Shown here piece by piece: positions 1 to 17,720 of a stretch of DNA of 64,000 bases. The stretch lies in NCBI GenBank assembly GCA_048940445.1, contig JBHLON010000012.1, positions 17,426 through 81,425 on the forward strand. The letters are read 5' to 3'. Source of the DNA: Promethearchaeota archaeon. Its GTDB lineage: Archaea > Asgardarchaeota > Lokiarchaeia > Sigyniarchaeales > SOKP01. The position numbers and the translations under genes were made by a program. How positions within the stretch are numbered: position 1 is the first letter of the stretch; each line of letters starts with the position of its first letter. The notes beneath the pieces are model-generated. The model made no database searches. It had not been told where the DNA came from and was given only the letters and a program-made list of their open reading frames with translations.

Positions 1-1275
1 GTGAAAAATCTCCAACTATTTTTACCAAAAAAACTCCCACAATTTTTTGGAAATCTTTTTGAGATTGAAGAAAAACATTTACAATTTTTTAAAGAGAAAA
101 AATTTGATGATCCCATTACTTTAGGGAAGGTTCGTTCAGGTTCTAAAATACTAGATATAGATGTCAATGTTAGTGCTTCTGAAGTAATACGCCATCATGT
201 GTTAATTCCTGCTACTACTGGAAGAGGTAAATCGAACTTAGTGAAAGTCATTTTATATAACATAGTAGAGAACTTATCTTGCGGAAAATTAGTGTTTGAT
301 CCTCATAATGAGTATTATGGCACACCAAAAATAAAAGGTCTTAAGGACCATCCTAAAAGCTCTGATTATGTTATATATTATACTTTGAGAGATATTCAAA
401 GAAAATTAGATTTAAAATTTAATGTTCAATATCTGTATCCAAGTCATGTTTTAGGTAGTATTGATTTATCCCAACCGCAAAGCGATGCTTTAATAACTTA
501 CTTTAGAAAATTTAAGAAAGAATGGATTCAAAAGATTTTTGACGAGAACATTGAGTATAATAAATTTGGCATAAAAGACACTACAATCGACGTTCTAAGA
601 AGAAAATTGACTCTTTTATTAGATTTAGATTTTGATGATGAAGGAAATATTATTGAAAAAGGCATATTTTCTCTAAGCGGTTATGAATCTACAATAGAAG
701 ATATTATTAATTTCTTGATTAATGGAAAAACAGTGATTATTGATAGTTCATTGTTTTCTGGAAATGAAGAAATTTTTATTGCTACAATTATAGTTGAGAG
801 CATTTTCAATCGATATAAACACTATAAATTTAAAGATGAGTTAGAGGATAAGCCTGTTATAGCTATAATACTTGAAGAGGCTCCTCGAGTCATAGGAATT
901 AAAGCATTAGAAGTTAGAGAGAACGTTTTTGGAAAAATAGCAAGGGAAGGGAGAAAGTTTAAGATAGGTTTAGTTGGAATTACTCAACTACCCAGTTTAA
1001 TTCCTCGTGAAATTCTTGCCAATATGAATACAAAAATAATTTTAGGTAATGAAATGGGTCCAGAGAGGCGGGTATTAATAGAAGGTTCAGCTCAAGATTT
1101 ATCTGATGACAGTCAAACAATCGCAAGTTTAGATATTGGTGAAGCAATCGTGACTTCTAACTTTACAAAGTTTGCAATTCCTATAAAAATCCCTCTATTT
1201 GATGACTTGATAAAGAATACTTTACATTCTGAAAAGAAAATAAAGAAAGTATCTCCAGGATTTTCATTAGAATAA
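1..1275 (+). CDS. herA: HerA DNA double-strand-break repair helicase/ATPase (5'-truncated by window edge)
   Basis: [15 protein letters not shown] Walker [14 protein letters not shown] Walker [15 protein letters not shown]; directly upstream of mre11-rad50. Confidence 0.92.
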
Positions 1276-1298
1276 TTTTGAAAAAAGGTGTAATAAGT

Positions 1299-2585
1299 AT
1301 GAAAGTTAAATTTGCTCATTTATCTGATTGCCATTTAGGTGCTTGGAGAAATGAGAGACTTAATGTGCTTGGATATAAAGCTTTTGAAGAAGCAACTAGT
1401 ATAATAATCAAAGAAAAAGTTGATTTTGTGATAATTAGTGGAGATTTATTTGATGTTAGCAATCCAAAAGTTGACGTTATAGACTTAGCCGTTAGGGAAT
1501 TAAAAAAGTTAAAAGACAATGACATACCTGTTTACGGCATCATGGGTTCACATGACTATTCACCCTCAAATAAATCTATGATTCGGCCTTTAATAACCGC
1601 TGGCCTTTTTATAAATGTATTTGATGGAAAAGCATTTGATGATAAATTAAAATTATTTTTTACACAAGATCCAAAAACTAAAATAAAGTTAACAGGATTG
1701 AGAGCGAGAAAGAGAAGCTTAGAAATTGAAGATTATGAAAGGTTAGATAAGCAAAATTTAGAAAATGAACCTGGAATTAAGATTTTTGTTTTTCATACAA
1801 TGTTAAATGAATTAAAACCAATCGAATTTAAGCAGATGGAATCTACTCCTAAATCTGGTTTGCCTAAAAATTTTCATTATTATGCTGGTGGGCATCTTCA
1901 TAAAACTGTACCGCATAAGTTAAGAGAAAATGATAATATAATTAAAATTTCTGATAAAAACAACATAGTTTATCCAGGTGCCCTAAGTTTGACTGATTTT
2001 AGAGAAATTGAGAAATATAAATATGGTGGATTTTGTATAATTTCGGGAGAAATAGATCATGATGTGTGTAACTTTAATGTTAGATTTATCCCTTTAAAAA
2101 TAAAAGAAGTGATTACACTTGATCTTAATTGTGAGAATAAGACTTCTTTACAAGTTCAAAATATTCTTAAAGAGAAGCTTGAGACCCTTAATGTTCAAGA
2201 CAAAATTGTAACCTTACGAATTCATGGAGCTTTATCTTCTGGAAAAAGCTATGAAGTTAAGACTAATAGTTTTATTCGTTATTTAAGACAAAAAGGCGCT
2301 TATGAAATTTTAATTAATAAATTCTCACTCTCCTCAAAAGAATATACGTCAATAAAGGTTCCAACGGGAAAAACAAATGAAGAGATTGAGGAAGTCTTTA
2401 TTCACGAACATGCTCAAACCACAAATATTAAAAATATCAGGAAAAAAGACCTTGAGAATAGGATTCATCAACTCCTAACTGCAATTGGAGAAGAAAGAGA
2501 AGAAGGCATGAAAGTAAAAGATTATAATGAACTTTTGATAACTAACTTTAAAAGAATTTTTCAGATAAATGAAAAAAAGGAATGA
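1299..2585 (+). CDS. mre11: Mre11 nuclease
   Basis: Metallophosphoesterase motifs HLSDCHLG, SGDLFD, GSHD, FH, GGHLH, YPG. ATG at 1299 follows AGGTG (ORF track starts at 1278). Confidence 0.93.
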   Translation: MKVKFAHLSDCHLGAWRNERLNVLGYKAFEEATSIIIKEKVDFVIISGDLFDVSNPKVDVIDLAVRELKKLKDNDIPVYGIMGSHDYSPSNKSMIRPLITAGLFINVFDGKAFDDKLKLFFTQDPKTKIKLTGLRARKRSLEIEDYERLDKQNLENEPGIKIFVFHTMLNELKPIEFKQMESTPKSGLPKNFHYYAGGHLHKTVPHKLRENDNIIKISDKNNIVYPGALSLTDFREIEKYKYGGFCIISGEIDHDVCNFNVRFIPLKIKEVITLDLNCENKTSLQVQNILKEKLETLNVQDKIVTLRIHGALSSGKSYEVKTNSFIRYLRQKGAYEILINKFSLSSKEYTSIKVPTGKTNEEIEEVFIHEHAQTTNIKNIRKKDLENRIHQLLTAIGEEREEGMKVKDYNELLITNFKRIFQINEKKE

Positions 2586-2589
2586 GAAA

Positions 2590-4692
2590 ATGATTATCGA
2601 ATCAGTGAAAATAAAGAACATTAGAAGTATAGTAAAATTAAATAAAGATTTCCCTTCTTCTACAATTCTATTTTATGGAGATATTGGGAGTGGTAAATCA
2701 TCAGTTTTAAAAGCAATAGAATTTGGATTATTTGGAACTTTAACCGCAGCAGATTTAAGTGGTGATTCTCTATTAAGAAGAGGCGAAAATAGAGGTTCAG
2801 TGGAATTAACCTTTCTAATAGATGATAAGAAATATACAGTCAAGCGGAATTTGAAGAGAGTCATCAAGGACAAAAAATCAACTGTAAATCAAGAAGAAGG
2901 CTCATTTATTGAATATATAAATAGTACTCCCTCAGAAATTTCTTATGCAGCTACAGACCTAAGAAAAAAAGTATTAAACCTCCTAAATTATTCAATAACT
3001 CGTTATGAGAAGGCTCAAAAGATTCCTATTTTTCGTTATACAGTCTATACTCCACAAGAACAAGTTAAAGAAATATTACAGGCAAAACCAGAAGAAAGAT
3101 TTGAAATCTTAAAAGAAGTTTTTGGGATTGAAAAGTATGAAATTGCTCTTAAAAATGTAAGCGTTCTTAATGATTATTTACATAATGAGGGAAAAGAAAC
3201 GAAAATCAAGCTAGATATAATAGGGCAACCTGAGCTTTTAGTCCCTAAGAAACAGCAGGAAATTGAAGAAAAAAAAGAAAAAATTGAAAAATTCCGAATC
3301 TCTTTAAAAGAAAAAGAAAAAGAATTAGAAAGGGAAGAACTGAAAGATGAAAAAATACAGTCGGATTTAGATGAATGCTCTAAAAAGTTAATTCAAATAG
3401 ACAATTATCAAAAATTAGTTACAAATTCAGCAGATTCTAAGCAAAAAAGTGAGAACTCATTGGATATATTAATAAAAGAAATTTCAAATTCGGAAAAAAT
3501 AATAAATGACTTGCCTCAAATAGAAATTGAAACAATTTTAACTGAAGAACAATTTGAAGCTCAGATTAAAAAGGCTCGTAAGGAATATTCTAAAATAGAG
3601 AAAGAGAAAGCAATTTTGGAGAAAAAAGTGGAAGATATTAACATTCTTTTAAAAGAAGGTAAGTGTTCTTTATGTGGACAAGAGATACATGAGCAAGAAA
3701 GATTTGATAAAGAATTAAAAGAGATAAATAAAAAAATTAAAAACTATTTAAAAGAGACTCAGGATTTGGAAGCTCAAATACTTAAATCCGAAATAAATTT
3801 AAAAAACTTAAGAGAATATAGCAAGGTTAGAACAAAGAAGGAAGCTCTATTGACTTTAATTGAGGAAAAAAGGAAAAGAGAAGGCGAACTAAAAAAAATC
3901 ATTGATCAATGTAGTGAAACAATCGAAAAAAACCAAAAATTAATAGATGATGTTCTAAAGAAATATGATATAAAAAATTTAGAGAAGTTAAAAGAATTAG
4001 AAGCGAAATTAAAATCTAATATTGTAACCCAGAAGAATTTTATTAAAAAAATTAGGGCAGAAAAGACTGAATTTGAAAAAGGATTAGTTATTGAACAAAC
4101 TAGTCTAAAATCACTAAATTCAGAATTAATCATATTAAAGGATAATCTTAAAAGTAAGGACATACTTCGAGAAAAACTTGAGTATGTGACAGATTTAAAA
4201 AATTGGATTACAGATAAATTCCATATCCTTATAAGAGATATTGAGAGAGAGATAATATCTTCTAGTGCCCGCCAATTTAATGAATATTTTAAAGAATGGT
4301 TTATAACTTTAGTAGAGGACCCAAATATTGAAGTAGAAATTCGATTAGATGATTTTGAGCCAATAATAACGGTGAATGGATATGATTCACCATTTAATGA
4401 TTTATCTGGTGGAGAAAAAAGTGCTTTATCTTTAGCATATAGACTCGCATTAAATAAGATAATCAATGAGAGATATCAAGAGGTAAAAACCAAAGATTTA
4501 TTAATTCTAGATGAACCTACTGATGGATTTAGCCAAGAGCAAATTAATAAAATGCAGGAAGTATTTGAGAAACTTGCTACTTCCCAAATGTTTATTATTT
4601 CTCATGATAGAAATCTTGATTCTTTTGTAACCGATATTTTCAATTTTACAAAAGAAAGACATCAAACCAGAGTTACACAAGAACAAGTATGA
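2590..4692 (+). CDS. rad50: Rad50 SMC-like ATPase
   Basis: Walker A GDIGSGKS, Q-loop YTPQEQ, zinc hook CSLCG, signature LSGGE, LILDEPT, SH. Likely ATG at 2590. Confidence 0.93.
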   Translation: MIIESVKIKNIRSIVKLNKDFPSSTILFYGDIGSGKSSVLKAIEFGLFGTLTAADLSGDSLLRRGENRGSVELTFLIDDKKYTVKRNLKRVIKDKKSTVNQEEGSFIEYINSTPSEISYAATDLRKKVLNLLNYSITRYEKAQKIPIFRYTVYTPQEQVKEILQAKPEERFEILKEVFGIEKYEIALKNVSVLNDYLHNEGKETKIKLDIIGQPELLVPKKQQEIEEKKEKIEKFRISLKEKEKELEREELKDEKIQSDLDECSKKLIQIDNYQKLVTNSADSKQKSENSLDILIKEISNSEKIINDLPQIEIETILTEEQFEAQIKKARKEYSKIEKEKAILEKKVEDINILLKEGKCSLCGQEIHEQERFDKELKEINKKIKNYLKETQDLEAQILKSEINLKNLREYSKVRTKKEALLTLIEEKRKREGELKKIIDQCSETIEKNQKLIDDVLKKYDIKNLEKLKELEAKLKSNIVTQKNFIKKIRAEKTEFEKGLVIEQTSLKSLNSELIILKDNLKSKDILREKLEYVTDLKNWITDKFHILIRDIEREIISSSARQFNEYFKEWFITLVEDPNIEVEIRLDDFEPIITVNGYDSPFNDLSGGEKSALSLAYRLALNKIINERYQEVKTKDLLILDEPTDGFSQEQINKMQEVFEKLATSQMFIISHDRNLDSFVTDIFNFTKERHQTRVTQEQV

Positions 4693-6632: not shown

Positions 6633-6917
6633 TTAATGAAGCTCTAATTTAAGATTATCTATTAGAGATGCTAAATATTGAGCCTTGAATGATTCTTTAT
6701 CTTCTATTTCATCATAAACTCTCATATATTCATTTAGTTCTTCTTGTTTTTCAATAAATTCTAATTCAAGATATCCTGTGGATAATTCAATAAAAAATTG
6801 TTCGCAAGAATCATCCAAATCTTTTTGTTCAACTTTATCTAAACTCTTTACAACAATTTCCATTAAAATCACATCCATTTTAGAAAGTAATTTTGTTTTA
6901 TCCAAGTAAATAACCAT
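6633..6917 (-). CDS. Small hypothetical protein homologous to the central helical hairpin of the 11147-11764 protein
   Basis: GYLELEFIEKQEELNEYMRVYDEIEDKESFKAQYLASLIDNL aligns with GYLYQEIVEKQQLQTELFEEYEKMNDKESYKGLSLKNWIDML. Confidence 0.75.
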   Translation of the reverse strand: MVIYLDKTKLLSKMDVILMEIVVKSLDKVEQKDLDDSCEQFFIELSTGYLELEFIEKQEELNEYMRVYDEIEDKESFKAQYLASLIDNLKLELH

Positions 6918-6958
6918 TCTCTCTAAATTTAAAAAATTTGATAAGAAGATTTTTTATT

Positions 6959-6984
6959 ATTTTGATAAATTTTTTTATCAAAAT
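6959..6984. promoter_or_regulatory. Perfect inverted repeat with TGATAA-N6-TTATCA core (candidate operator; could alternatively be a cdc48 terminator hairpin)
   Basis: ATTTTGATAAA-tttt-TTTATCAAAAT upstream of the 6917 gene; same core recurs at 11864 and 12006. Confidence 0.5.
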
Positions 6985-7026: not shown

Positions 7027-9336
<2,310 letters not shown>

Positions 9337-9364: not shown

Positions 9365-10360
9365 TTACTTTTTAAGTATCTCTGTAGCTATTTTAAAAGC
9401 ATAATTATAATCAAATACCTTTAATCCCTTTGTTTTTGAGGCTTCTTTTAAGATTTGGCTCTCTGAATTTGCTTTCAAGGCGCCTAATGCCAGCGCACCT
9501 ATACAAAATATTCCAGGATAAACCTCATCGTTTTTATGTTTAGGCCTTACACCTTCAATACCATAAGGAGGAACTAAATTAATATCAACTACAATTTTTT
9601 TACCAGATAATTTTTGCATCAAATCTGCATTTAATATTTCAACACCAGCAGCAGCAAGAGACCAAATAACAAGGGCATCTTTCGCCGCTTCAAATCTTTG
9701 TTCTGGTTCTGGTGCAAACACTCCATGAATTTTTGTTGCTTCTTTCCCAGCTTCTGCAGTAAGTTCGTTTGCTAGCGTATTCACAAAATCCTTATTTGAT
9801 TTTTCCCACGTTTCTACTATGTATGTTTTACAGCCTATCTTGGCTGCTAAAATTGCTGCAATTCTTCCAACTGGTCCTGCCCCAAAAATCACTATTTTTT
9901 TATCTTTTAAACTTTTTATTCCATGTTTTCTATTAGCGATATCTATGGTCATAGCCACAACCGCGGAAGCTGTAGTATGAGAACCTCTAGGATCAATAAT
10001 AATTGGGCATTCAAAAGGAGGCACTAATGAGTCTTTTACAGTTTTAGCAATTTTTTCCCCTTCTTTAACATCTGACCCTCCAATAAAGAAAGCGGTGGGA
10101 GCATTGGGTTTTCTAGAAAATATTGCATCCTGTACAAGCTTGGGAACATAATCTGCTTTCATTTTACTCAACGGTATAACAATATCAAAACCAGCATCGT
10201 ATGCCATATTTATATCAAAAGGAGAAGCATTCTCATCTGTATCGAAAAAATAGCATATTTTATCAGATGTATCTTGTTTTTTAATAATAATTGGAGCTAA
10301 TTCTATAATAGATTTTTTTCCTAAAATACTTTCAGCACTTCTATCAACCATTTTCATCAA
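9365..10360 (-). CDS. NAD(P)-dependent methylene-H4MPT dehydrogenase, MtdB/MtdA family
   Basis: SPFDINMAYDAGFD, VQDAIFSR, FIGG, DPRGSHTTASA, GAGPVG, DINLVPPYGIEG, GALALGALK. Confidence 0.85.
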   Translation of the reverse strand: MMKMVDRSAESILGKKSIIELAPIIIKKQDTSDKICYFFDTDENASPFDINMAYDAGFDIVIPLSKMKADYVPKLVQDAIFSRKPNAPTAFFIGGSDVKEGEKIAKTVKDSLVPPFECPIIIDPRGSHTTASAVVAMTIDIANRKHGIKSLKDKKIVIFGAGPVGRIAAILAAKIGCKTYIVETWEKSNKDFVNTLANELTAEAGKEATKIHGVFAPEPEQRFEAAKDALVIWSLAAAGVEILNADLMQKLSGKKIVVDINLVPPYGIEGVRPKHKNDEVYPGIFCIGALALGALKANSESQILKEASKTKGLKVFDYNYAFKIATEILKK

Positions 10361-10397: not shown

Positions 10398-11129
10398 TTA
10401 TTTAGAGATGTCAATTTCAACATCTTTTTCGAGATCTTTTTCAATTTCTTCAGTTCTAATGGTTCTCTTGATCTTAATTTGTTCCGTTTCAATACCTAAT
10501 TCTTCTGATAATTTTTCAATCCCATTAAAGTGTCGAAGATCACAGATAAACATCCCTTTCAATTTTTTACCACTTTTTTCCTTTGCAAGATTTAATACAT
10601 TCATCATCATCCAGGCTTCTCTTACTTTATACCTTATATCATCCTCTTGATTATCATAATCCTTCTGTAAATATTCTTTCCATAATATTAACTGTTGAAA
10701 TAATTCATCATTTTCAGGAACTTTTCCTTGTTTTTTAATTATTTCTCTAATTTTTAATTCAAGATTTTTAATTGTAGATCTATGTTCGTCTAAGGCTGAA
10801 GAAAGATATAATTCAGCATTTTCTGCTATATCAGCACGTTTGAAAGAAATATTTCGTTTCTCAAATAGTTTTTTCAAAGGATCATTTGGGTCATTTACAT
10901 TATTCCAAAAATTTGGTCTCTCTTCTACTGCAAAATCTGGTTTATACTTCTCAATCAATGAATCAACTAATTGAAGATATTCTTTTGAAATTAAGTGAAG
11001 ATTCCATATAAGATCTTCTTTAATCTCATTAGGTACTTCAAACCACCAGTCTATTGGGAATTCACTTTCAATCATTACTAATTTTAAATATTTTTCTTTT
11101 AAAGGTTTTAATTCTAACACTTCTGGCAT
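10398..11129 (-). CDS. TraB/PrgY(TIKI)-like fold hypothetical protein
   Basis: HLISKE..IEKYKPDFAVEE and REAWM..FICDLRHFNGI resemble TraB motifs; SD GGAG upstream. Confidence 0.55.
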   Translation of the reverse strand: MPEVLELKPLKEKYLKLVMIESEFPIDWWFEVPNEIKEDLIWNLHLISKEYLQLVDSLIEKYKPDFAVEERPNFWNNVNDPNDPLKKLFEKRNISFKRADIAENAELYLSSALDEHRSTIKNLELKIREIIKKQGKVPENDELFQQLILWKEYLQKDYDNQEDDIRYKVREAWMMMNVLNLAKEKSGKKLKGMFICDLRHFNGIEKLSEELGIETEQIKIKRTIRTEEIEKDLEKDVEIDISK

Positions 11130-11146: not shown

Positions 11147-11764
11147 TTAAAATATTATATTTTGTATTGTATGTTTTTTATTATAGGAAATTACTTTTAC
11201 ACCTAATTCCCTCAAATTACTGGTAACTTCAGGGCAAATATCTTCACAAATATCTTCTTGAACAAAATGCACAAACACAATTATATTTTTTTCGTAGTTG
11301 GATACTAAATCTAACATTTTCTTAACAATCCATTGAGGTCTCAATTTTAGACTTAGAAATATTTCTTTTTCCTGAATCTCTTCTCCTAACATGTCAATCC
11401 AATTCTTTAAACTGAGTCCTTTATAGGATTCTTTGTCGTTCATTTTTTCATATTCTTCAAATAATTCTGTTTGTAATTGTTGTTTTTCAACAATTTCTTG
11501 ATATAGATAACCCATCGCATAATCTGGAATATCAACTTGAAAATAGGGGATTTTTAGTTCATTTAATGTTAGAGCAAATGGTGTTTTACTAAATTCTTTC
11601 ATATTAACCTGAAAATCTACCGTTACAAAATCAACGTTGTTCTTTTTTAAAAATTCTCTTAACTTAGACGTGTCTTTATTTTGAAAATACTTCGCATTTT
11701 CTTTTGAGGAAATATAGGCAACAATTTTTCTATTTTTTATAGGCTTTAATTCCAAAACTTCCAC
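11147..11764 (-). CDS. Paralog of the 10398-11129 protein (TraB-like, divergent)
   Basis: Shared N-terminus EVLELKP and similar C-terminal W..K..L..LRELGV. GTG start at 11764 after GAGGTG (ORF track extends to 11845). Confidence 0.6.
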   Translation of the reverse strand: MEVLELKPIKNRKIVAYISSKENAKYFQNKDTSKLREFLKKNNVDFVTVDFQVNMKEFSKTPFALTLNELKIPYFQVDIPDYAMGYLYQEIVEKQQLQTELFEEYEKMNDKESYKGLSLKNWIDMLGEEIQEKEIFLSLKLRPQWIVKKMLDLVSNYEKNIIVFVHFVQEDICEDICPEVTSNLRELGVKVISYNKKHTIQNIIF

Positions 11765-11863
11765 TTTATGAAACACCTCTTCATAAACCATATCGTAGTA
11801 ATCTAAGATCTTAATCAAATTGTTAGAATAAAAAGAGTTTGACAAGAAAATTTTCTTATAATT

Positions 11864-11881
11864 TGATAATTTTTTTAGTCA
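11864..11881. promoter_or_regulatory. Candidate operator TGATAA-N6-TAGTCA
   Basis: Imperfect copy of the 6963-6980 palindrome, between the leftward TATA box and the 11764 start. Confidence 0.4.
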
Positions 11882-11911
11882 AGAACTCTTCAAACAAAAT
11901 TTTTGTTGTTA

Positions 11912-11956
11912 TATATAAAATCGATAATTCTATGACTAATATCGCCATTTTATATA
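11912..11956. promoter_or_regulatory. Back-to-back TATA boxes of a divergent promoter
   Basis: TATATAAAATCGATA...TATCGccATTTTATATA inverted repeat giving TTTATATA on each strand. Confidence 0.5.
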
Positions 11957-12005
11957 ATGAAGAGGAAAAGTCTAATGATCAAATCCTAACAAAGTTTAAA
12001 TAGAT

Positions 12006-12023
12006 CGATAACTATCATTATCA
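12006..12023. promoter_or_regulatory. Candidate operator CGATAA-N6-TTATCA
   Basis: Immediately downstream of TTTAAATA (11995-12002) and upstream of the HTH-HdrA gene. Confidence 0.45.
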
Positions 12024-12091
12024 TGAAGAGAAATAAAATTGTCAAATTTGAAAATTAACAAAAATAATAATCAAATAAAGAGGGGAAGTAA

Positions 12092-14638
12092 ATAGATATA
12101 TACAACATCTTATCCCATCCTGTCCGAAGGAAAATTTTATTATTATTAGAAAAAGAAGGGTTTATCCCATATACAGAGCTAATGGAAAAAATGGGGATAG
12201 ATCAAACGGGTCAATTAAATTTCCATCTAAAGAAGTTAGGGTCCTTAATAAATAAAGATAAAAAATCTTACTTTTTAACTGAAGATGGCAAAAGAATTTT
12301 AAGGATTATGAATGTAAGTAAACGCATCTTAGCAGGTGAAGAGATAGAATACTTAGATAAAAAAGGAAGCGAAATCAATCGCGTAGGAGTGATCTTATGC
12401 AGTTGTAACACTGAAATTTCTAATATAATAAATATTAATGCCTTGGAAAGTCAAATTGAGAATTTAGATGGTGTAGTTTCAGTAAAGGTTTTTGATAATT
12501 TATGTCAAGAAAAAAATTTGAATAAAATAACAAATTGGATAAAGGAGAACTTTTTAAACAAAGTAGTTATAGCAGCTTGTTCACCTAAAACACATCAGCA
12601 CATTTTTGAGCGGATTTTTAAAAATGTAATTGATAGTGCTAATATTGAAATAGCCAATATTAGAGAGCAATGTTGTTGGGTTCATCATTCAAATAATCAG
12701 CAATTTGATCCTTTATTGGCGTTAAAAAAGGCGAATTTGTTAATTGAAGCTGCAGTCGAACGCGTGAGACTTCAAAAAGAAGTTAAAATAAAAACAGTAG
12801 AAGTTGAAAAAAGTTGTGCTATTTTAGGAGGCGGTATTGCCGGTATGACATTAGCCTTAAATCTTTCCCGGGCAGGGATTAAAGTATATTTAATTGAAAA
12901 ATCACCTACACTAGGCGGGAAAGTAGCCAGATGGCATCGTATTTCTAACATGGGTGACTGTTCTATATGCTTTATTTCTGAATTAATTGGTGAAATAGTA
13001 AAAGAAAAAAATATCGAAATTTTAACTAATACTGAAATAGAAACGGTTTCTGGAGAGGTAGGAAATTTTACTTTAGATTTAATCAAGAAACCGAGATTTG
13101 TAGATGAGAAAAAATGTACCGGCTGTAAACAATGTATAAATGTATGTGGGAAAGAAAAAAGAAATCAATACGAATTTGATTTAACCTCTCGAAAAATAAT
13201 ATATATCCCCTTCCAGAATTCATATCCATATGTTCCTCTAATTGACGAGGAAGATATTAATGATTGTTTAAATTGTAGAATATGTGAACGAGTTTGTATT
13301 AATAAAGCAATAAACCTAAACGAAAAAGTTGAAAAAATTCGAATTAAAGTTGGAGCGAAAGTTATTGCAATAGGTGCTGACCTTTATTCGAATTTAACAA
13401 AATATTTATATAATCCTCAAAAAGATATTATCACTTCCTCTGAATTTGAGAGAATTTTATCTTCAGATGGTATTACAGAAGGAAAATTAGTGAGATTATC
13501 TGATAAGAAACTGATAAATTCCGTTTCAATTGTTCAAGAAGTTGGTCCATCTAAATATCTAGCAGAATATTCAGAAATTTTAGCGCAAAAATATATAGAG
13601 GATATTAAAATAAGAAGCCCTGACTGTGAAGTAAACGTTTTTTATGATTTAAGTAAATTAAAAAATAAAAATGAAATTTTACTGCGATCAACTAATCCAA
13701 GATTTCTCTATGCTAATAATGTTACCATTGAAACTAATGGTACAATGAACTATGTTGTTGCCGATAATATTGAATTTCCGAGCGATCTGATAGTTTTAAA
13801 TCTTAAGTATATTCCTAATAAAGATCTAAAAGTTTTACGGAGGTTCATGGATTTTACATTGAACGATTTCGGTTTTATGAGCGAGGAAACACTAGCATCA
13901 GGTATTTATGGAATTGGAACAATATTTGGCCCTTTAAACTACCAATCGACTCTTTCTACTGCAAATATCGTAGCGCTAAAAGTCATTTCTCTCCTCTCAA
14001 ATGATTATTTATTAGCTGAATTTACTGGAATTGAAATTAATGAAGAAAAATGTGGTTTATGCGGTTTATGTGAAAAAGCATGTCCTTATAATGCGATAAC
14101 GATTGAATCAAATAAGATTAATATTGATAAATTTAAATGTAAAGGTTGTGGTACATGCGCAAGTGTATGTTCTACTAACGCTATTGAAATGAATATAGAT
14201 ACTTCAGAAAAGATTTTAAAAACTATCGAGGTTTATTCAAAATTTAGTAAAAGTCCTAAAATTATCGCTTTTTGTTGTTATTCTTGCGGTTATGCTGCTG
14301 CTGATGATGCAGGTCTTAAAAAGGAGTTATATCAACCAAATATTTTCGTTATACGTATTCCATGTACGGGAAGATTGGATACTGAATTCATATTTAAATC
14401 ATTTGAAGCAGGATTTGATGGAGTAATGGTGATAGGATGCAGGAAAGATGCTTGTAGATATATTGATGGAATTGAAAAGGCACAAAAAAAAATATCACTC
14501 ATTAAAAAGATATTAAATCCAAAATATAGCAACCGAATTATATTTAAAAACTTAAATGCTGTAGAGGGTCATAAATTTGCAGAAATTGCGAATAAATTTT
14601 ATAATATTTTAAAGGAGGGGGCTATAAATCAAACTTAA
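12092..14638 (+). CDS. Fusion: ArsR-like winged HTH + HdrA-like flavoprotein (degenerate) + ferredoxin + MvhD
   Basis: In-frame extension IDIYNILSHPVRRKILLLLEKEGFIPYTELMEKMGIDQTGQLNFHLKKL starting at ATA 12092 after GAGGGG; CSC..LC..ACSPKTH..NIREQCCWVH; GGGIAG; two 2x[4Fe-4S] ferredoxin motifs; MvhD FCCYSC..RIPCTGR..GC..CRY. Confidence 0.88.
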   Translation: MDIYNILSHPVRRKILLLLEKEGFIPYTELMEKMGIDQTGQLNFHLKKLGSLINKDKKSYFLTEDGKRILRIMNVSKRILAGEEIEYLDKKGSEINRVGVILCSCNTEISNIININALESQIENLDGVVSVKVFDNLCQEKNLNKITNWIKENFLNKVVIAACSPKTHQHIFERIFKNVIDSANIEIANIREQCCWVHHSNNQQFDPLLALKKANLLIEAAVERVRLQKEVKIKTVEVEKSCAILGGGIAGMTLALNLSRAGIKVYLIEKSPTLGGKVARWHRISNMGDCSICFISELIGEIVKEKNIEILTNTEIETVSGEVGNFTLDLIKKPRFVDEKKCTGCKQCINVCGKEKRNQYEFDLTSRKIIYIPFQNSYPYVPLIDEEDINDCLNCRICERVCINKAINLNEKVEKIRIKVGAKVIAIGADLYSNLTKYLYNPQKDIITSSEFERILSSDGITEGKLVRLSDKKLINSVSIVQEVGPSKYLAEYSEILAQKYIEDIKIRSPDCEVNVFYDLSKLKNKNEILLRSTNPRFLYANNVTIETNGTMNYVVADNIEFPSDLIVLNLKYIPNKDLKVLRRFMDFTLNDFGFMSEETLASGIYGIGTIFGPLNYQSTLSTANIVALKVISLLSNDYLLAEFTGIEINEEKCGLCGLCEKACPYNAITIESNKINIDKFKCKGCGTCASVCSTNAIEMNIDTSEKILKTIEVYSKFSKSPKIIAFCCYSCGYAAADDAGLKKELYQPNIFVIRIPCTGRLDTEFIFKSFEAGFDGVMVIGCRKDACRYIDGIEKAQKKISLIKKILNPKYSNRIIFKNLNAVEGHKFAEIANKFYNILKEGAINQT

Positions 14639-15374
14639 GTTTATTATTGCTTCGTTAACCTCATGCAGTGGATGTATATCAACATTAATTTCATTGGATA
14701 TGTTTTCTCAATTTCTAGAAAAAATTGAAATCTCTTTTTTTCCATTTATTTCAGATCAAAATGAATTAATTGACTCTGATGTCGCATTAATAGAGGGTTG
14801 TATTTCAGAAGCTAATCAAATAGAAATATTGAAAAATATTAGAAAACATTCAAAAAAAGTTTATGCTTTAGGCACTTGTGCTGCTTTTGGGGGGATTTTA
14901 GGGTTATCTAAAAGAAAAGATTCTGATCCAATCTTAAAATTTATAGAAATTGATGGATTTATCCCTGGATGTCCTCCTCCAACAAACTTATTAGGAAATT
15001 CCTTAATGAGACTAATAGAAAATAAAAGTATAATTCTTTCTGAAAAAAATATGTGCGCCTCTTGTCCACGTAAAGGAGAAATGCATCTTAATTCTCAAAT
15101 AACAAAGCTTAATCCTTCTAATTCTGAAATAATGTCTAATAAACGAGAATGTTTTTTAAATAATGGGATCTTATGTTTAGGGCCAATTACTCGAGAAGGA
15201 TGTGATAATAAATGTATAGAACTGGGATTACCATGCGAAGGATGTTTAGGTCCTCCTTCAAAGCAGTACACATCAAATCTTATAAATTTCTTGAGTCTGG
15301 TTCCTCTTTCTAATAAATTAAAGAAATATCCAGGAATCTTTTATAGATTTTCAAAGCCGACATTAAAAAGGTGA
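14628..15374 (+). CDS. mvhG: [NiFe] hydrogenase small subunit, MvhG/group 3-like
   Basis: N-terminal SCSGC lies upstream of the ORF-track start, in frame from ATC 14628 after GGAGGGG; EG, GTCAAFGG, PGCPP, CxxC, CLGP..C..C..PCEGC. Confidence 0.85.
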   Translation: MKLKFIIASLTSCSGCISTLISLDMFSQFLEKIEISFFPFISDQNELIDSDVALIEGCISEANQIEILKNIRKHSKKVYALGTCAAFGGILGLSKRKDSDPILKFIEIDGFIPGCPPPTNLLGNSLMRLIENKSIILSEKNMCASCPRKGEMHLNSQITKLNPSNSEIMSNKRECFLNNGILCLGPITREGCDNKCIELGLPCEGCLGPPSKQYTSNLINFLSLVPLSNKLKKYPGIFYRFSKPTLKR

Positions 15375-16678
15375 GAATAATTCAAAAGGTAATAAATGTA
15401 TGTTCCAGAGTTGAGGGCCACGGTAAAGTTAGTTATTTCATACAAAATGATAATATTGATCATGTTGAATTTGAAATTTCTGCATTTAGAGGATTCGAAA
15501 ACATTTTGGTAGGTAAGAATTTAAAAGATATACCTAGAATTGTCTCGAGAATTTGTGGTTTGTGTCATGCTTCTCAAACAATTGCTAGTTGTAAAGCTAT
15601 TGAAAAAATCTATGATATTCAACCCAGCTCTCAAGCTATTCTACTTAGAAAATTATTAATGACGGGGGAATTAATCAAGTCTCATATTATGCATTTTTTC
15701 TTTCAATCACTACCTGATCTCTTAGAAATTTTTCAAATCTATAAAAGTGGGAGTAATTCATACAATTTGGTTAAGTTTGACCCACAATTGAGCAGTAATG
15801 TTTTTGACCTAATTAAAACAGGATCTGAATTAAACAATATTTTTGGAGGAAGAATAATCCATTTGATTACTCCTGTTCCAGGAGGAATTATCTATTATCC
15901 TTCAAAAAAGAATATTCTGCTCGCTCAAAAATATTTACAGAAATCCATATCTCATATTCAATACATTATTGATCGATTTGTTGAATTATTCGCTTCTAAA
16001 ATCCCTCCATATGAATTTAATCTAAATAAAACATCGTATTTAGGAATGCTAAATAAAGGAAAATATGATAGGTATAATGGAACTCTAAATATATTACCGG
16101 TTAATATGAACAAATTAAATTTTGAAGTGAATGATTATAAAAACTATTTTGAAAAAGATTCTAATTTGTTTGGAATTAAATTTTTATCAGATATAAAAAG
16201 CATTTTAACGGGACCGATTGCAAGATTCTATCTCATAAATAAAGATAATGAAATTAGAAGAAATGCTGTAATAGATAACTTTGACACAGAGTGGAAAGAG
16301 AACATTTTATTTATGAACATTTTACAACTTGTCGAAGTCTTTAAAGAAGTAAATAATAGTATAGAGATATTAAATAAACATAGTTTAGAAAATAAAGATA
16401 CCCTCCCCTCTCTTAATACTATCATAAATCAGGAAGGTTTTGGGATTGTAGAAGCCCCACGTGGAACCCTTATACATCATTATCATCTAAATAAATCTAA
16501 AATAATTGATTGCGTTAAACTTTTTATAGCAACTGAAATAAATTTTCCTCTTTTAAATGAAAAAATTAAAAATTATGCTCAAGAGTTATACAAAAAAGAA
16601 GACTTAGAATCAGTCAATAGAAAAGTTCAAATTTTGATAAGAGCTTTTGATCCATGTATCTCTTGTGCTACACATTAG
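15371..16678 (+). CDS. mvhA: [NiFe] hydrogenase large subunit, MvhA/group 3-like, no C-terminal extension
   Basis: RVEGHG, L1 RICGLC, EAPRGTLIHHY, L2 DPCISCATH followed immediately by stop. Confidence 0.88.
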   Translation: MRIIQKVINVCSRVEGHGKVSYFIQNDNIDHVEFEISAFRGFENILVGKNLKDIPRIVSRICGLCHASQTIASCKAIEKIYDIQPSSQAILLRKLLMTGELIKSHIMHFFFQSLPDLLEIFQIYKSGSNSYNLVKFDPQLSSNVFDLIKTGSELNNIFGGRIIHLITPVPGGIIYYPSKKNILLAQKYLQKSISHIQYIIDRFVELFASKIPPYEFNLNKTSYLGMLNKGKYDRYNGTLNILPVNMNKLNFEVNDYKNYFEKDSNLFGIKFLSDIKSILTGPIARFYLINKDNEIRRNAVIDNFDTEWKENILFMNILQLVEVFKEVNNSIEILNKHSLENKDTLPSLNTIINQEGFGIVEAPRGTLIHHYHLNKSKIIDCVKLFIATEINFPLLNEKIKNYAQELYKKEDLESVNRKVQILIRAFDPCISCATH

Positions 16679-16697: not shown

Positions 16698-17720
16698 ATG
16701 GATGATTTCAACCTGAATAAGCCAAAAGATGCTGTAGAGCCCGAACAACTATGTGAAATATTTCTACTCTACTTTGATGAAGAATATGGACCAATGCCTC
16801 TTCTTATCACTCCTGATGAGTCTCTAAAAGATGATGTTGATGTTATGCGTTTAATTAGAATTCATTCCATTTGGTTTCTTGATATAAGCGATCAAACATC
16901 TCCAGATCGTATGGATTTAGAGTATCAAAAAAAAATATATTTTGCAAAGAAATTTTTAGTACCATCCAAAAGAGAAAAAAGGCGTTCAGGTTCTGAAGGA
17001 GAAAGTTTCGAAACTCTTGTTTTAATCTTAGCTTTACCAGTTGATATGGATATCTTTGGAGGAGCACTTCTAAAAAGAATGGCAGAAAGAATAACAAAGC
17101 ATTTTTCTTTTAAAATATCTCATCTAATAGATTCTGAAATAGCAAAAATGAAAGCGATAAAAATCCATACCACGATACCACTACTTCAGATTGGAGATGC
17201 TATTAAAAAGCGAATAAAAGTTTTAATTAAAAACACATGTGTACAGTATTTCGATTCTGTCATTAAGAAAACTGATTCTACAACTTTCAAACTTCAGAAA
17301 GCTATATCATACTTATCATTAAAGGGAGTTCCAATTAACTATATTGTTAGTGAAAAGGGAAATTTAGGTTTTTCAAACGTTAAACTGTTTGAATCAAAAG
17401 TTTTAGTAAATGATAAATATAAATTTGAAAAAAATTTTAAAATTATAAGCACAGATATAGATTCAGATACTCAAGAAGTTGAGATTTTAATTAAAAATCT
17501 TTCAATTAATGAATTTAGTAATCTCTATGTTAAAGTAATCTCTATTCAAGAATTCTTTGAAAGTGAAGTATTACGTGAAAAAATAGAAAAATGGCTTCCT
17601 GAAGAAGAGTTAATTATAATACTACCTTATGTACTCACAAACTTTGAATACTTCTTTTATATCTTTGATAGTCACTCTAATCAGACTTTATTTAAGCAGA
17701 AGTTGCAACTACTAAATTAA
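16698..17720 (+). CDS. Hypothetical protein with longin/uDENN-like N-terminus and beta-sandwich C-terminus
   Basis: LLYFDEEYGPMPL motif typical of longin/uDENN strands; 19 nt downstream of mvhA. Confidence 0.5.
   Translation: MDDFNLNKPKDAVEPEQLCEIFLLYFDEEYGPMPLLITPDESLKDDVDVMRLIRIHSIWFLDISDQTSPDRMDLEYQKKIYFAKKFLVPSKREKRRSGSEGESFETLVLILALPVDMDIFGGALLKRMAERITKHFSFKISHLIDSEIAKMKAIKIHTTIPLLQIGDAIKKRIKVLIKNTCVQYFDSVIKKTDSTTFKLQKAISYLSLKGVPINYIVSEKGNLGFSNVKLFESKVLVNDKYKFEKNFKIISTDIDSDTQEVEILIKNLSINEFSNLYVKVISIQEFFESEVLREKIEKWLPEEELIIILPYVLTNFEYFFYIFDSHSNQTLFKQKLQLLN

Follow-up and report, generated by a model that had tools for sequence, protein, structure and literature searches.

A winged helix-turn-helix–HdrA–MvhD fusion linked to a tail-less [NiFe] hydrogenase: a candidate H2-responsive transcriptional regulator in Lokiarchaeia

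A DNA-binding domain is fused to HdrA-MvhD ahead of mvhG and mvhA

In a 64,000-nt stretch of a Lokiarchaeial Asgard contig (the window, to whose positions coordinates refer throughout), an operon on the plus strand encodes what may be a hydrogenase complex carrying its own DNA-binding domain. The first gene, open reading frame 1 (ORF1; 12092..14638, +; 848 aa, ATA start), encodes a fusion of a winged helix-turn-helix (wHTH) to HdrA and MvhD, and it is followed by an mvhG-like small-subunit gene (14628..15374, +; ATC start, cluster Cys conserved) and by mvhA (15371..16678, +), encoding a group 3 [NiFe] hydrogenase large subunit that lacks a C-terminal extension. The first-pass annotation of this DNA had described ORF1 as an ArsR-type wHTH continued by HdrA and MvhD, and both parts of that description held up. 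An in-frame match to Pfam DUF7347 covers residues 2-72 (E 1.2e-11; 45.1 bits vs. a cut-off of 27.6) and the domain is conserved in homologues; an HdrA2-like NCBIfam match covers residues 97-842 (E 1.6e-169; 565 vs. a family cut-off of 1100), and the Pfam FlpD model places the MvhD/FlpD domain at residues 724-841.

The reading frame is open from 12092 to 14638, and the ATA is the first in-frame codon directly after an upstream TAA, 6 nt behind a Shine-Dalgarno-like GAGGGG (12080..12085, +). ORF callers place the start at 12182 instead. Since 37 of 41 homologous loci carry an ATG, TTG or GTG at exactly the codon equivalent to this ATA, we regard the wHTH as part of the ORF1 protein. Non-canonical starts (ATA, ATC, ACG, ATT or CTG) were seen at window positions 12092 and 14628 and in loci L054-L056, L060, L071 and L073, mostly in genus g1, and because of them the HTH is often truncated in public gene calls; a genome-wide check revealed no general excess of ATA or ATC starts behind Shine-Dalgarno motifs. 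With more than 120 independent homologues at hand, we rejected an assembly artefact as the origin of the fusion.

The wHTH (12092..12331, +) contains a near-invariant recognition helix, TGQLNFHLKK (from 12206), of which TGQLNFH is nearly invariant across 121 close homologues, and it is the part conserved best in this set, with a column conservation of 0.88, compared to 0.75-0.88 for the enzyme domains of the fusion. An AlphaFold2 model of the fusion (predicted local distance difference test score, pLDDT, 85; predicted template modeling score 0.73) consists of a winged helix, a low-confidence linker at residues 83-93 and an HdrA fold (Foldseek E 3.6e-54 to 5ODC_A). The wHTH region itself has the helix and wing pattern at a pLDDT of about 85 and matches PDB 1Y0U (E 0.002), and the linker between wHTH and HdrA, ~15 residues of low pLDDT, is conserved in length among the fusions. 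When residues 1-95 were modeled as a homodimer, the score was 0.45 vs. 0.00 for the best control; 20 of 30 solved pairs and 1 of 23 single chains reach this mark, although the score may reflect likeness to solved ArsR dimers. In the modeled dimer, contacts agree to at least 62% at a pLDDT of at least 83, and the interface is formed by the first and last helices, as in ArsR dimers. The fusion resembles ArsR-like/DUF7347 regulators (e.g., PDB 1Y0U) in its wHTH, its predicted first/last-helix dimer and a palindromic operator in its own promoter (below). It differs from them in that residues 1-95 contain no Cys that could serve metal or thiol sensing, and in that its sensor module is a multi-cluster flavoprotein.

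The HdrA part has lost the ligands of cluster HA4 and kept its other cofactor sites

Along the plus strand, the HdrA-MvhD part comprises the HdrA N-terminal domain (12398..12580), which is part of the mobile arm and carries the shuttle-cluster HA3 ligands C103, C105, C138 and C163; the flavin adenine dinucleotide (FAD) motif GGGIAG with the pair C290/C293 (12827..12970), equivalent to Cys202/205 between MvhD and FAD; an inserted ferredoxin domain with eight invariant Cys (HA5/HA6; 13115..13297); E453 (13448-13450), the Glu356 of 5ODC by alignment; a C-terminal ferredoxin domain with eight Cys (HA1/HA2; 14051..14170); and the MvhD [2Fe-2S] domain, recognized by family matches (14249..14638). 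K500, E453, C290, C293, HA3 and the Cys of both ferredoxin domains are invariant among fusions, and the MvhD cluster ligands are kept. At the HA4 site (13535..13591, +), the canonical QCVGSR..YCSxxCC reads QEVGP..YLAEYSE, so that C386, C399, C403 and C404 (5ODC numbering) are all absent, as had been read from the sequence at first, and 7 residues are deleted. K500, which follows this dead site, aligns with Lys409 of 5ODC, a residue that adjoins flavin N5 (PMC13514486). While the window fusion retains 0/4 HA4 Cys, each of the 121 close homologues retains at most one. The annotation had placed the lost cluster on the route to HdrBC; it is HA4, which carries the high-potential electron from FAD to HdrB (PMC13580544).

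The large subunit ends in DPCISCATH-stop, and the stop falls at the same His in 120/120 close homologues, confirming that the tail is missing. Its best family matches are VhuA and 5ODC_F (group 3, 3c-like), and it may be a member of one of the Asgard [NiFe] subgroups 3e-3l, which were named on phylogeny (bioRxiv 10.1101/2024.07.04.601786). Four Cys and the EAPRG motif are invariant, and across about 160 large-subunit sequences this holds for the four Ni-Fe Cys, the Glu and the APRG Arg. At the CxxC+4 position, where standard enzymes have His, the subunit has Gln69 (15575-15577), which corresponds to Gln67 of HoxC (HoxG has His there) and is shared by 119 of 120 close homologues. The genome encodes HypD and HypA. 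Behind mvhA, at a distance of 19 bp, lies a 340-aa ORF (16698-17720, +) with no Pfam match, which adjoins mvhA mainly in genus g1.

The genome encodes a separate canonical Vhu-HdrBC enzyme

A separate canonical vhuG-vhuA-vhuU(Sec)-hdrC-hdrB operon was found at G000:C47:23575-27884 (-). Its vhuU contains an in-frame TGA, presumably read as selenocysteine (Sec), within RCFDCUxxCAAH, a motif conserved in relatives. Since the C47 enzyme has a gene for Sec-VhuU, we rejected the idea that the cell has no intact hydrogenase besides the one encoded by mvhAG. A single codon, probably Sec, likewise splits several hdrA paralogues.

In a comparison of nine family genomes with the window genome, VhuA shares 80-93% identity, whereas the fusion-linked large subunit shares only 49-80% (in most cases about 52%) while retaining every ligand, a divergence about three times that of the housekeeping VhuA. 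Identity falls along the fusion operon from the HTH and HdrA (about 70-80%; HTH 72-88%) through MvhG (about 60%) to MvhA (about 52%). Given this difference between the HTH and the large subunit, the DNA-binding end appears tightly constrained and the hydrogenase end relaxed but intact. The reported lack of hdrB and hdrC in the window extends to its whole contig, on which we found no CCG (HdrB/HdrD) domain; the rest of the genome holds about two dozen CCG-domain genes, several of them adjoining an intact hdrA of their own. No hdrBC was present inside the fusion operon in any of about 40 loci read.

A conserved palindrome precedes the fusion operon and a TraB-like/Mtd operon

The palindrome GAYAA-N6-TTRTC occurs no more than 350 bp ahead of the gene in 27 of the 41 fusion loci (shuffled sequences: mean 0.15, maximum 2), and the signal is seen only with a 6-bp spacer. 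Ahead of ORF1, tandem candidate operator boxes (12005..12045; an exact core at 12007-12022 and a core with one mismatch at 12028-12043, 21 bp apart) lie just downstream of a TATA-like TTTAAATA (11995-12002), a placement from which we infer a repressor geometry. The leftward promoter has a candidate box of its own (11838..11882), made up of a core at 11865-11880 and a conserved half-site, TTTGACAAGAA, at 11838-11848. A sigma-70 promoter scan was uninformative, the host being archaeal. The first-pass annotation had proposed the intergenic region 11770-12090 for an electrophoretic mobility shift assay with the HTH; the cognate palindrome does fall inside it, and the target that can be traced is the divergent TraB-like/Mtd operon, not the main hydrogenase.

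This inferred target operon begins with a gene for a TraB/ChaN-like alpha/beta protein (gene 1; 11147..11764, -), followed by one for a paralogous TraB/ChaN-like domain that is fused to Mtd in many relatives (gene 2; 10398..11129, -) and by one for an MtdA/MtdB-type NAD(P)-dependent methylene-tetrahydromethanopterin (H4MPT) dehydrogenase (gene 3; 9365..10360, -; E 5e-32 to MtdA). Gene 3 is the only Mpt_N gene found in the genome, which is 93% complete and yielded no match to F420-dependent Mtd (PF01993). The TraB/ChaN identity of genes 1 and 2 is only a lead from structure comparison: no Foldseek match reached E 0.001 or better, VIA gave the best Z (8.7), ChaN gave Z 8.3 (146 aligned, root-mean-square deviation 3.9) and an Atlas TraB gave a TM of 0.49.

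The box accompanies the mtd module even where the module is unlinked from the regulator. It was present within 300 bp upstream in 17 of 20 such copies, some of them on other contigs, and the operator matrix had not been trained on these 20. In families f9 and f14 the TraB-like/mtd module lies downstream of mvhA with its own box, and a box is present around the Bathyarchaeia fusion operon; in six loci from families in which we did not find the fusion, mtd had no box in front of it. Because the box follows the gene through several rearrangements, a shared binding protein is hard to avoid, and such comparisons make it very probable that the HTH regulates the promoters of its own operon and of the TraB-like/Mtd operon.

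The predicted regulon is otherwise narrow. The operator matrix was not enriched genome-wide (40 sites at a score of >=11 vs. 40-55 in shuffles), exact-pattern box counts in 23 genomes were near control, and no operator box was found near the vhu operon in the window genome or in 10 relatives. For lack of genome-wide enrichment we dropped a large regulon and the other high-scoring genome sites as targets, and for lack of a box at the vhu operon we dropped control of the main hydrogenase; together these results suggest that the regulon is small.

The fusion predates its degeneration

We found the fusion in about 70 of 301 sampled Asgard genomes, comprising 50 of the 68 genomes of the host family and members of families f3, f4, f9, f14, f18 and f21. 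The architecture HTH-HdrA-MvhD and its synteny with mvhG and mvhA, which the annotation had suggested following across Asgard genomes, proved to be conserved, with mvhG and mvhA behind the fusion in every locus long enough to show them. We saw no such fusion in the 7 genomes of sister family f2, the other family of the same order, so a culture suited to an H2-responsive test may not exist. A profile search of 1.8 billion representatives returned only a handful of clusters that span the HTH-HdrA junction, one of which includes Bathyarchaeia.

A tree for which the HA4 columns were left out, a quick LG+G4 run with long-branch warnings, groups the fusions in one clade separate from the canonical paralogues and is compatible with either one or two losses of HA4. 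Families f9, f14 and f18 keep the four HA4 Cys and the His, and the tail is present at every gene end that was read; most HA4 Cys are gone in f21, the Gln appears in f1 and f3, and the tail is lost in f1. Because distant Asgard and Bathyarchaeia members keep the HA4 Cys, the His and the tail, the fusion must be older than the degeneration, and the description of a degenerate, tail-less module is right for the Lokiarchaeial clade but not for the family.

Family f18 (L037-L040 and L043) has an altered recognition helix (GKLNF or GRLTF) and Lys in place of Arg in L1 of the large subunit, which is without the terminal His in L038-L040 and L043. In L125, from the cluster with Bathyarchaeia members, the fusion keeps HA4, the His and the tail; a box at 776 precedes a gcvH-hoxEFU-like diaphorase operon leading into the fusion gene, and another box, at 11556, accompanies a second divergent promoter. 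The fusion operon of genus g2 lies inside an Hdr/Frh cluster, sometimes with frhB within the operon. In genera g2 and g6 (L104-L106), the regulator and mtd operons flank this cluster of hdrD-like, 1050-aa hdrA-like, mvhD, frhB-like and Sec-hdrA genes, whose divergent promoters share boxes, pointing to a possible wider regulon.

A proposed dedicated H2/redox regulator and the alternatives to it

The reading we favor, with a probability of roughly 0.6, is that the complex is a dedicated one-component H2/redox regulator of its own operon, which it would autorepress, and of the TraB-like/Mtd operon. MvhAG would oxidize H2 and pass the electrons via HA1/HA2, the MvhD [2Fe-2S] cluster and C290/C293 to the HdrA FAD, a route whose ligands are intact. 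Without HA4 the flavin would be unable to bifurcate to heterodisulfide and, since this exit to HdrCB is gone, should follow the H2/ferredoxin potential. In solved complexes the HdrA N-terminal domain is part of an arm that changes state by rotation as the flavin goes through its cycle, and the wHTH would hang from this domain by its flexible linker, tethered to the mobile arm. Redox state would set the position of the arm, and arm position the ability of two wHTHs to pair; as comparative footprinting strongly suggests, the wHTH dimer would then repress its own and the TraB-like/mtd operon from GAYAA-N6-TTRTC boxes just downstream of TATA-like elements. Such repression would tie an NAD(P)-dependent step of the H4MPT one-carbon pathway to the H2 supply.

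A dedicated sensor fits because Gln69 is a second sensory-hydrogenase trait and because a separate canonical Vhu-HdrBC operon exists. The repurposing for sensing that was first suggested for this module therefore finds support in the conserved HTH, the loss of HA4, Gln69 and the separate Vhu-HdrBC enzyme, with the qualification that the losses are lineage-specific. At slightly better than even odds, we would go further and see here an archaeal H2-sensing system, an electron-bifurcating Mvh-Hdr machine recruited as a transcription factor, with the rotating arm as the switch for the wHTH dimer, the exit lost in Lokiarchaeia, and the Gln and tail loss convergent with bacterial regulatory hydrogenases, such that the H2 level would set Mtd and, in some relatives, probably Hdr/Frh.

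Several observations weigh against a dedicated sensor. No box marks the vhu operon, the kind of operon that an H2 sensor usually controls, and in family f18, where the fusion is present, the box is absent and we found no TraB-like gene. Some hydrogenases without a sensory role have lost the C-terminal tail as well (PMC8229454). Our counts overstate independence, since they come from related genomes. The kept equivalents of Lys409 and Glu356, together with all ferredoxin clusters, fit real electron flux, and the distant members with HA4, His and tail mean that the whole family may be an enzyme that also regulates. These last points lead to the alternative of a bifunctional, PutA-like trigger enzyme, in which metabolic flux is kept (H2-ferredoxin exchange or supply to neighboring HdrD, HdrL or FrhB) and the HTH adds autoregulation. 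Invariant K500, E453, C290/293, HA3 and ferredoxin Cys, the four HA4 Cys of the basal clades and the setting of the g2 operon amid hdrD-like, large hdrA-like, mvhD, frhB-like and Sec-hdrA genes all suit such an enzyme. However, the loss of HA4 leaves this lineage no high-potential branch, hdrBC is in the operon of no locus read, and the large subunit is diverging about three times faster than VhuA. We consider a trigger enzyme unlikely here and probably the right reading for the distant members with intact HA4.

The declining conservation from HTH/HdrA to MvhG to MvhA, and a main hydrogenase that is no visible target, would also be expected of a regulator whose input is not H2 but the status of ferredoxin or Fe-S/Ni, sensed via HA3 and HA5/6, with the hydrogenase as a fading appendage or a flavin-resetting electron vent. 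That mvhG and mvhA nevertheless follow in every sufficiently long locus, that the Ni-Fe Cys, Glu and Arg do not vary in about 160 sequences, and that a known H2 sensor has both the Gln and the missing tail make this account improbable in our judgment. Lastly, an autoregulator may have merged passively with the first gene of its operon, its HTH binding DNA regardless of enzyme state; DUF7347 HTHs are N-terminal on many unrelated proteins, an HTH-TraB-like-Mtd fusion exists (L116), and the linker has a low pLDDT. We give this very little credence: one clade has been kept in several Asgard families and in Bathyarchaeia with a conserved linker length, L116 and L117 look like deletion derivatives without a box, and an HA4-less enzyme module without a signaling role would have little reason to persist.

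Relation to known systems

Among known systems, the fusion complex stands close to MvhAGD-HdrABC (PDB 5ODC, 8RVU and 9SW2; HdrA2-type HdrA-MvhD, NCBIfam NF040770). The HdrA fold, the FAD-site Lys and Glu, the Cys pair, HA1-3, HA5-6, MvhD, MvhG and MvhA are common to both. In contrast, the fusion complex has an N-terminal wHTH, no HA4 ligands, no hdrBC in its operon, no C-terminal extension and Gln in place of His, and it scores far below the family cut-offs. With the group 2b sensor HoxBC-HoxJ-HoxA of Cupriavidus necator (and HupUV) it shares a tail-less large subunit, Gln at CxxC+4 and a coexisting energy-converting hydrogenase. The sequence here belongs to group 3, so these shared traits would be convergent; the locus has no kinase or response regulator (the neighbors are TraB-like/mtd and the 340-aa ORF), the DNA-binding domain is inside the complex, and its own operon and mtd, rather than the main hydrogenase, stand out as targets. 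PutA of enteric bacteria is a flavoprotein whose N-terminal domain binds DNA; the redox state of its FAD controls repression of a divergent promoter region. The likeness of a DNA-binding domain and a flavoenzyme domain in one chain is a functional analogy only, as PutA joins a ribbon-helix-helix to proline dehydrogenase and the present protein a wHTH to HdrA, which are unrelated folds; here, moreover, a separate hydrogenase would provide the input, and the catalytic exit has disappeared. By its predicted composition the fusion complex falls in neither class, since it lacks the HA4 that defines Mvh-Hdr and the group and kinase that define group 2b, although it would resemble the group 2b sensors in purpose and PutA in logic. 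Literature searches, with most subscription papers outside their reach, returned no description of an HTH-HdrA fusion or of a DNA-binding hydrogenase complex.

To our knowledge, the reading of H2 by archaea at the level of transcription is an open question. The H2 sensors characterized so far come from bacteria and act via kinases (group 2b; PMC8229454), and for [FeFe] group C enzymes a sensory role is only putative (PMC11216029). Syntrophy models of Asgard life and of the origin of eukaryotes revolve around H2 exchange, and, if the regulator reading is true, Mtd expression would be set by H2 in archaea thought to live by H2 syntrophy. The question becomes testable with a named protein, a separable 80-residue domain, a 16-bp operator and a named target operon. 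The fusion also provides a natural HA4-less HdrA for the study of flavin bifurcation and arm gating, within a graded series that runs from an intact enzyme-regulator to a likely dedicated sensor.

Neighboring genes and related loci

TraB-like-Mtd fusions are common in Bathyarchaeia and in Asgard families f10 and f15 (ESM Atlas; L110-L115), with no regulator or box nearby. A wHTH-TraB-like-Mtd triple fusion occurs at L116:4501-6477 (G218), and a frameshifted copy of it at L117:6773-8786 (G275); hdrA-mvhD-mvhG-mvhA is apparently deleted in both, and there is no operator box nearby. In L107 (G144) the TraB-like/mtd operon is tandemly duplicated, with boxes of its own before each copy. In the window, an exact candidate operator box (6962..6981) precedes a short gene (6633-6953, -) that copies the helical hairpin of TraB-like target gene 1, and a box lies at the matching place in G201. 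A gene for Cdc48 (7027-9285, -) lies behind mtd, co-oriented with it, in most close relatives. The window begins with genes for HerA, a Mre11-like phosphoesterase and a Rad50-like protein (1-4692, +).

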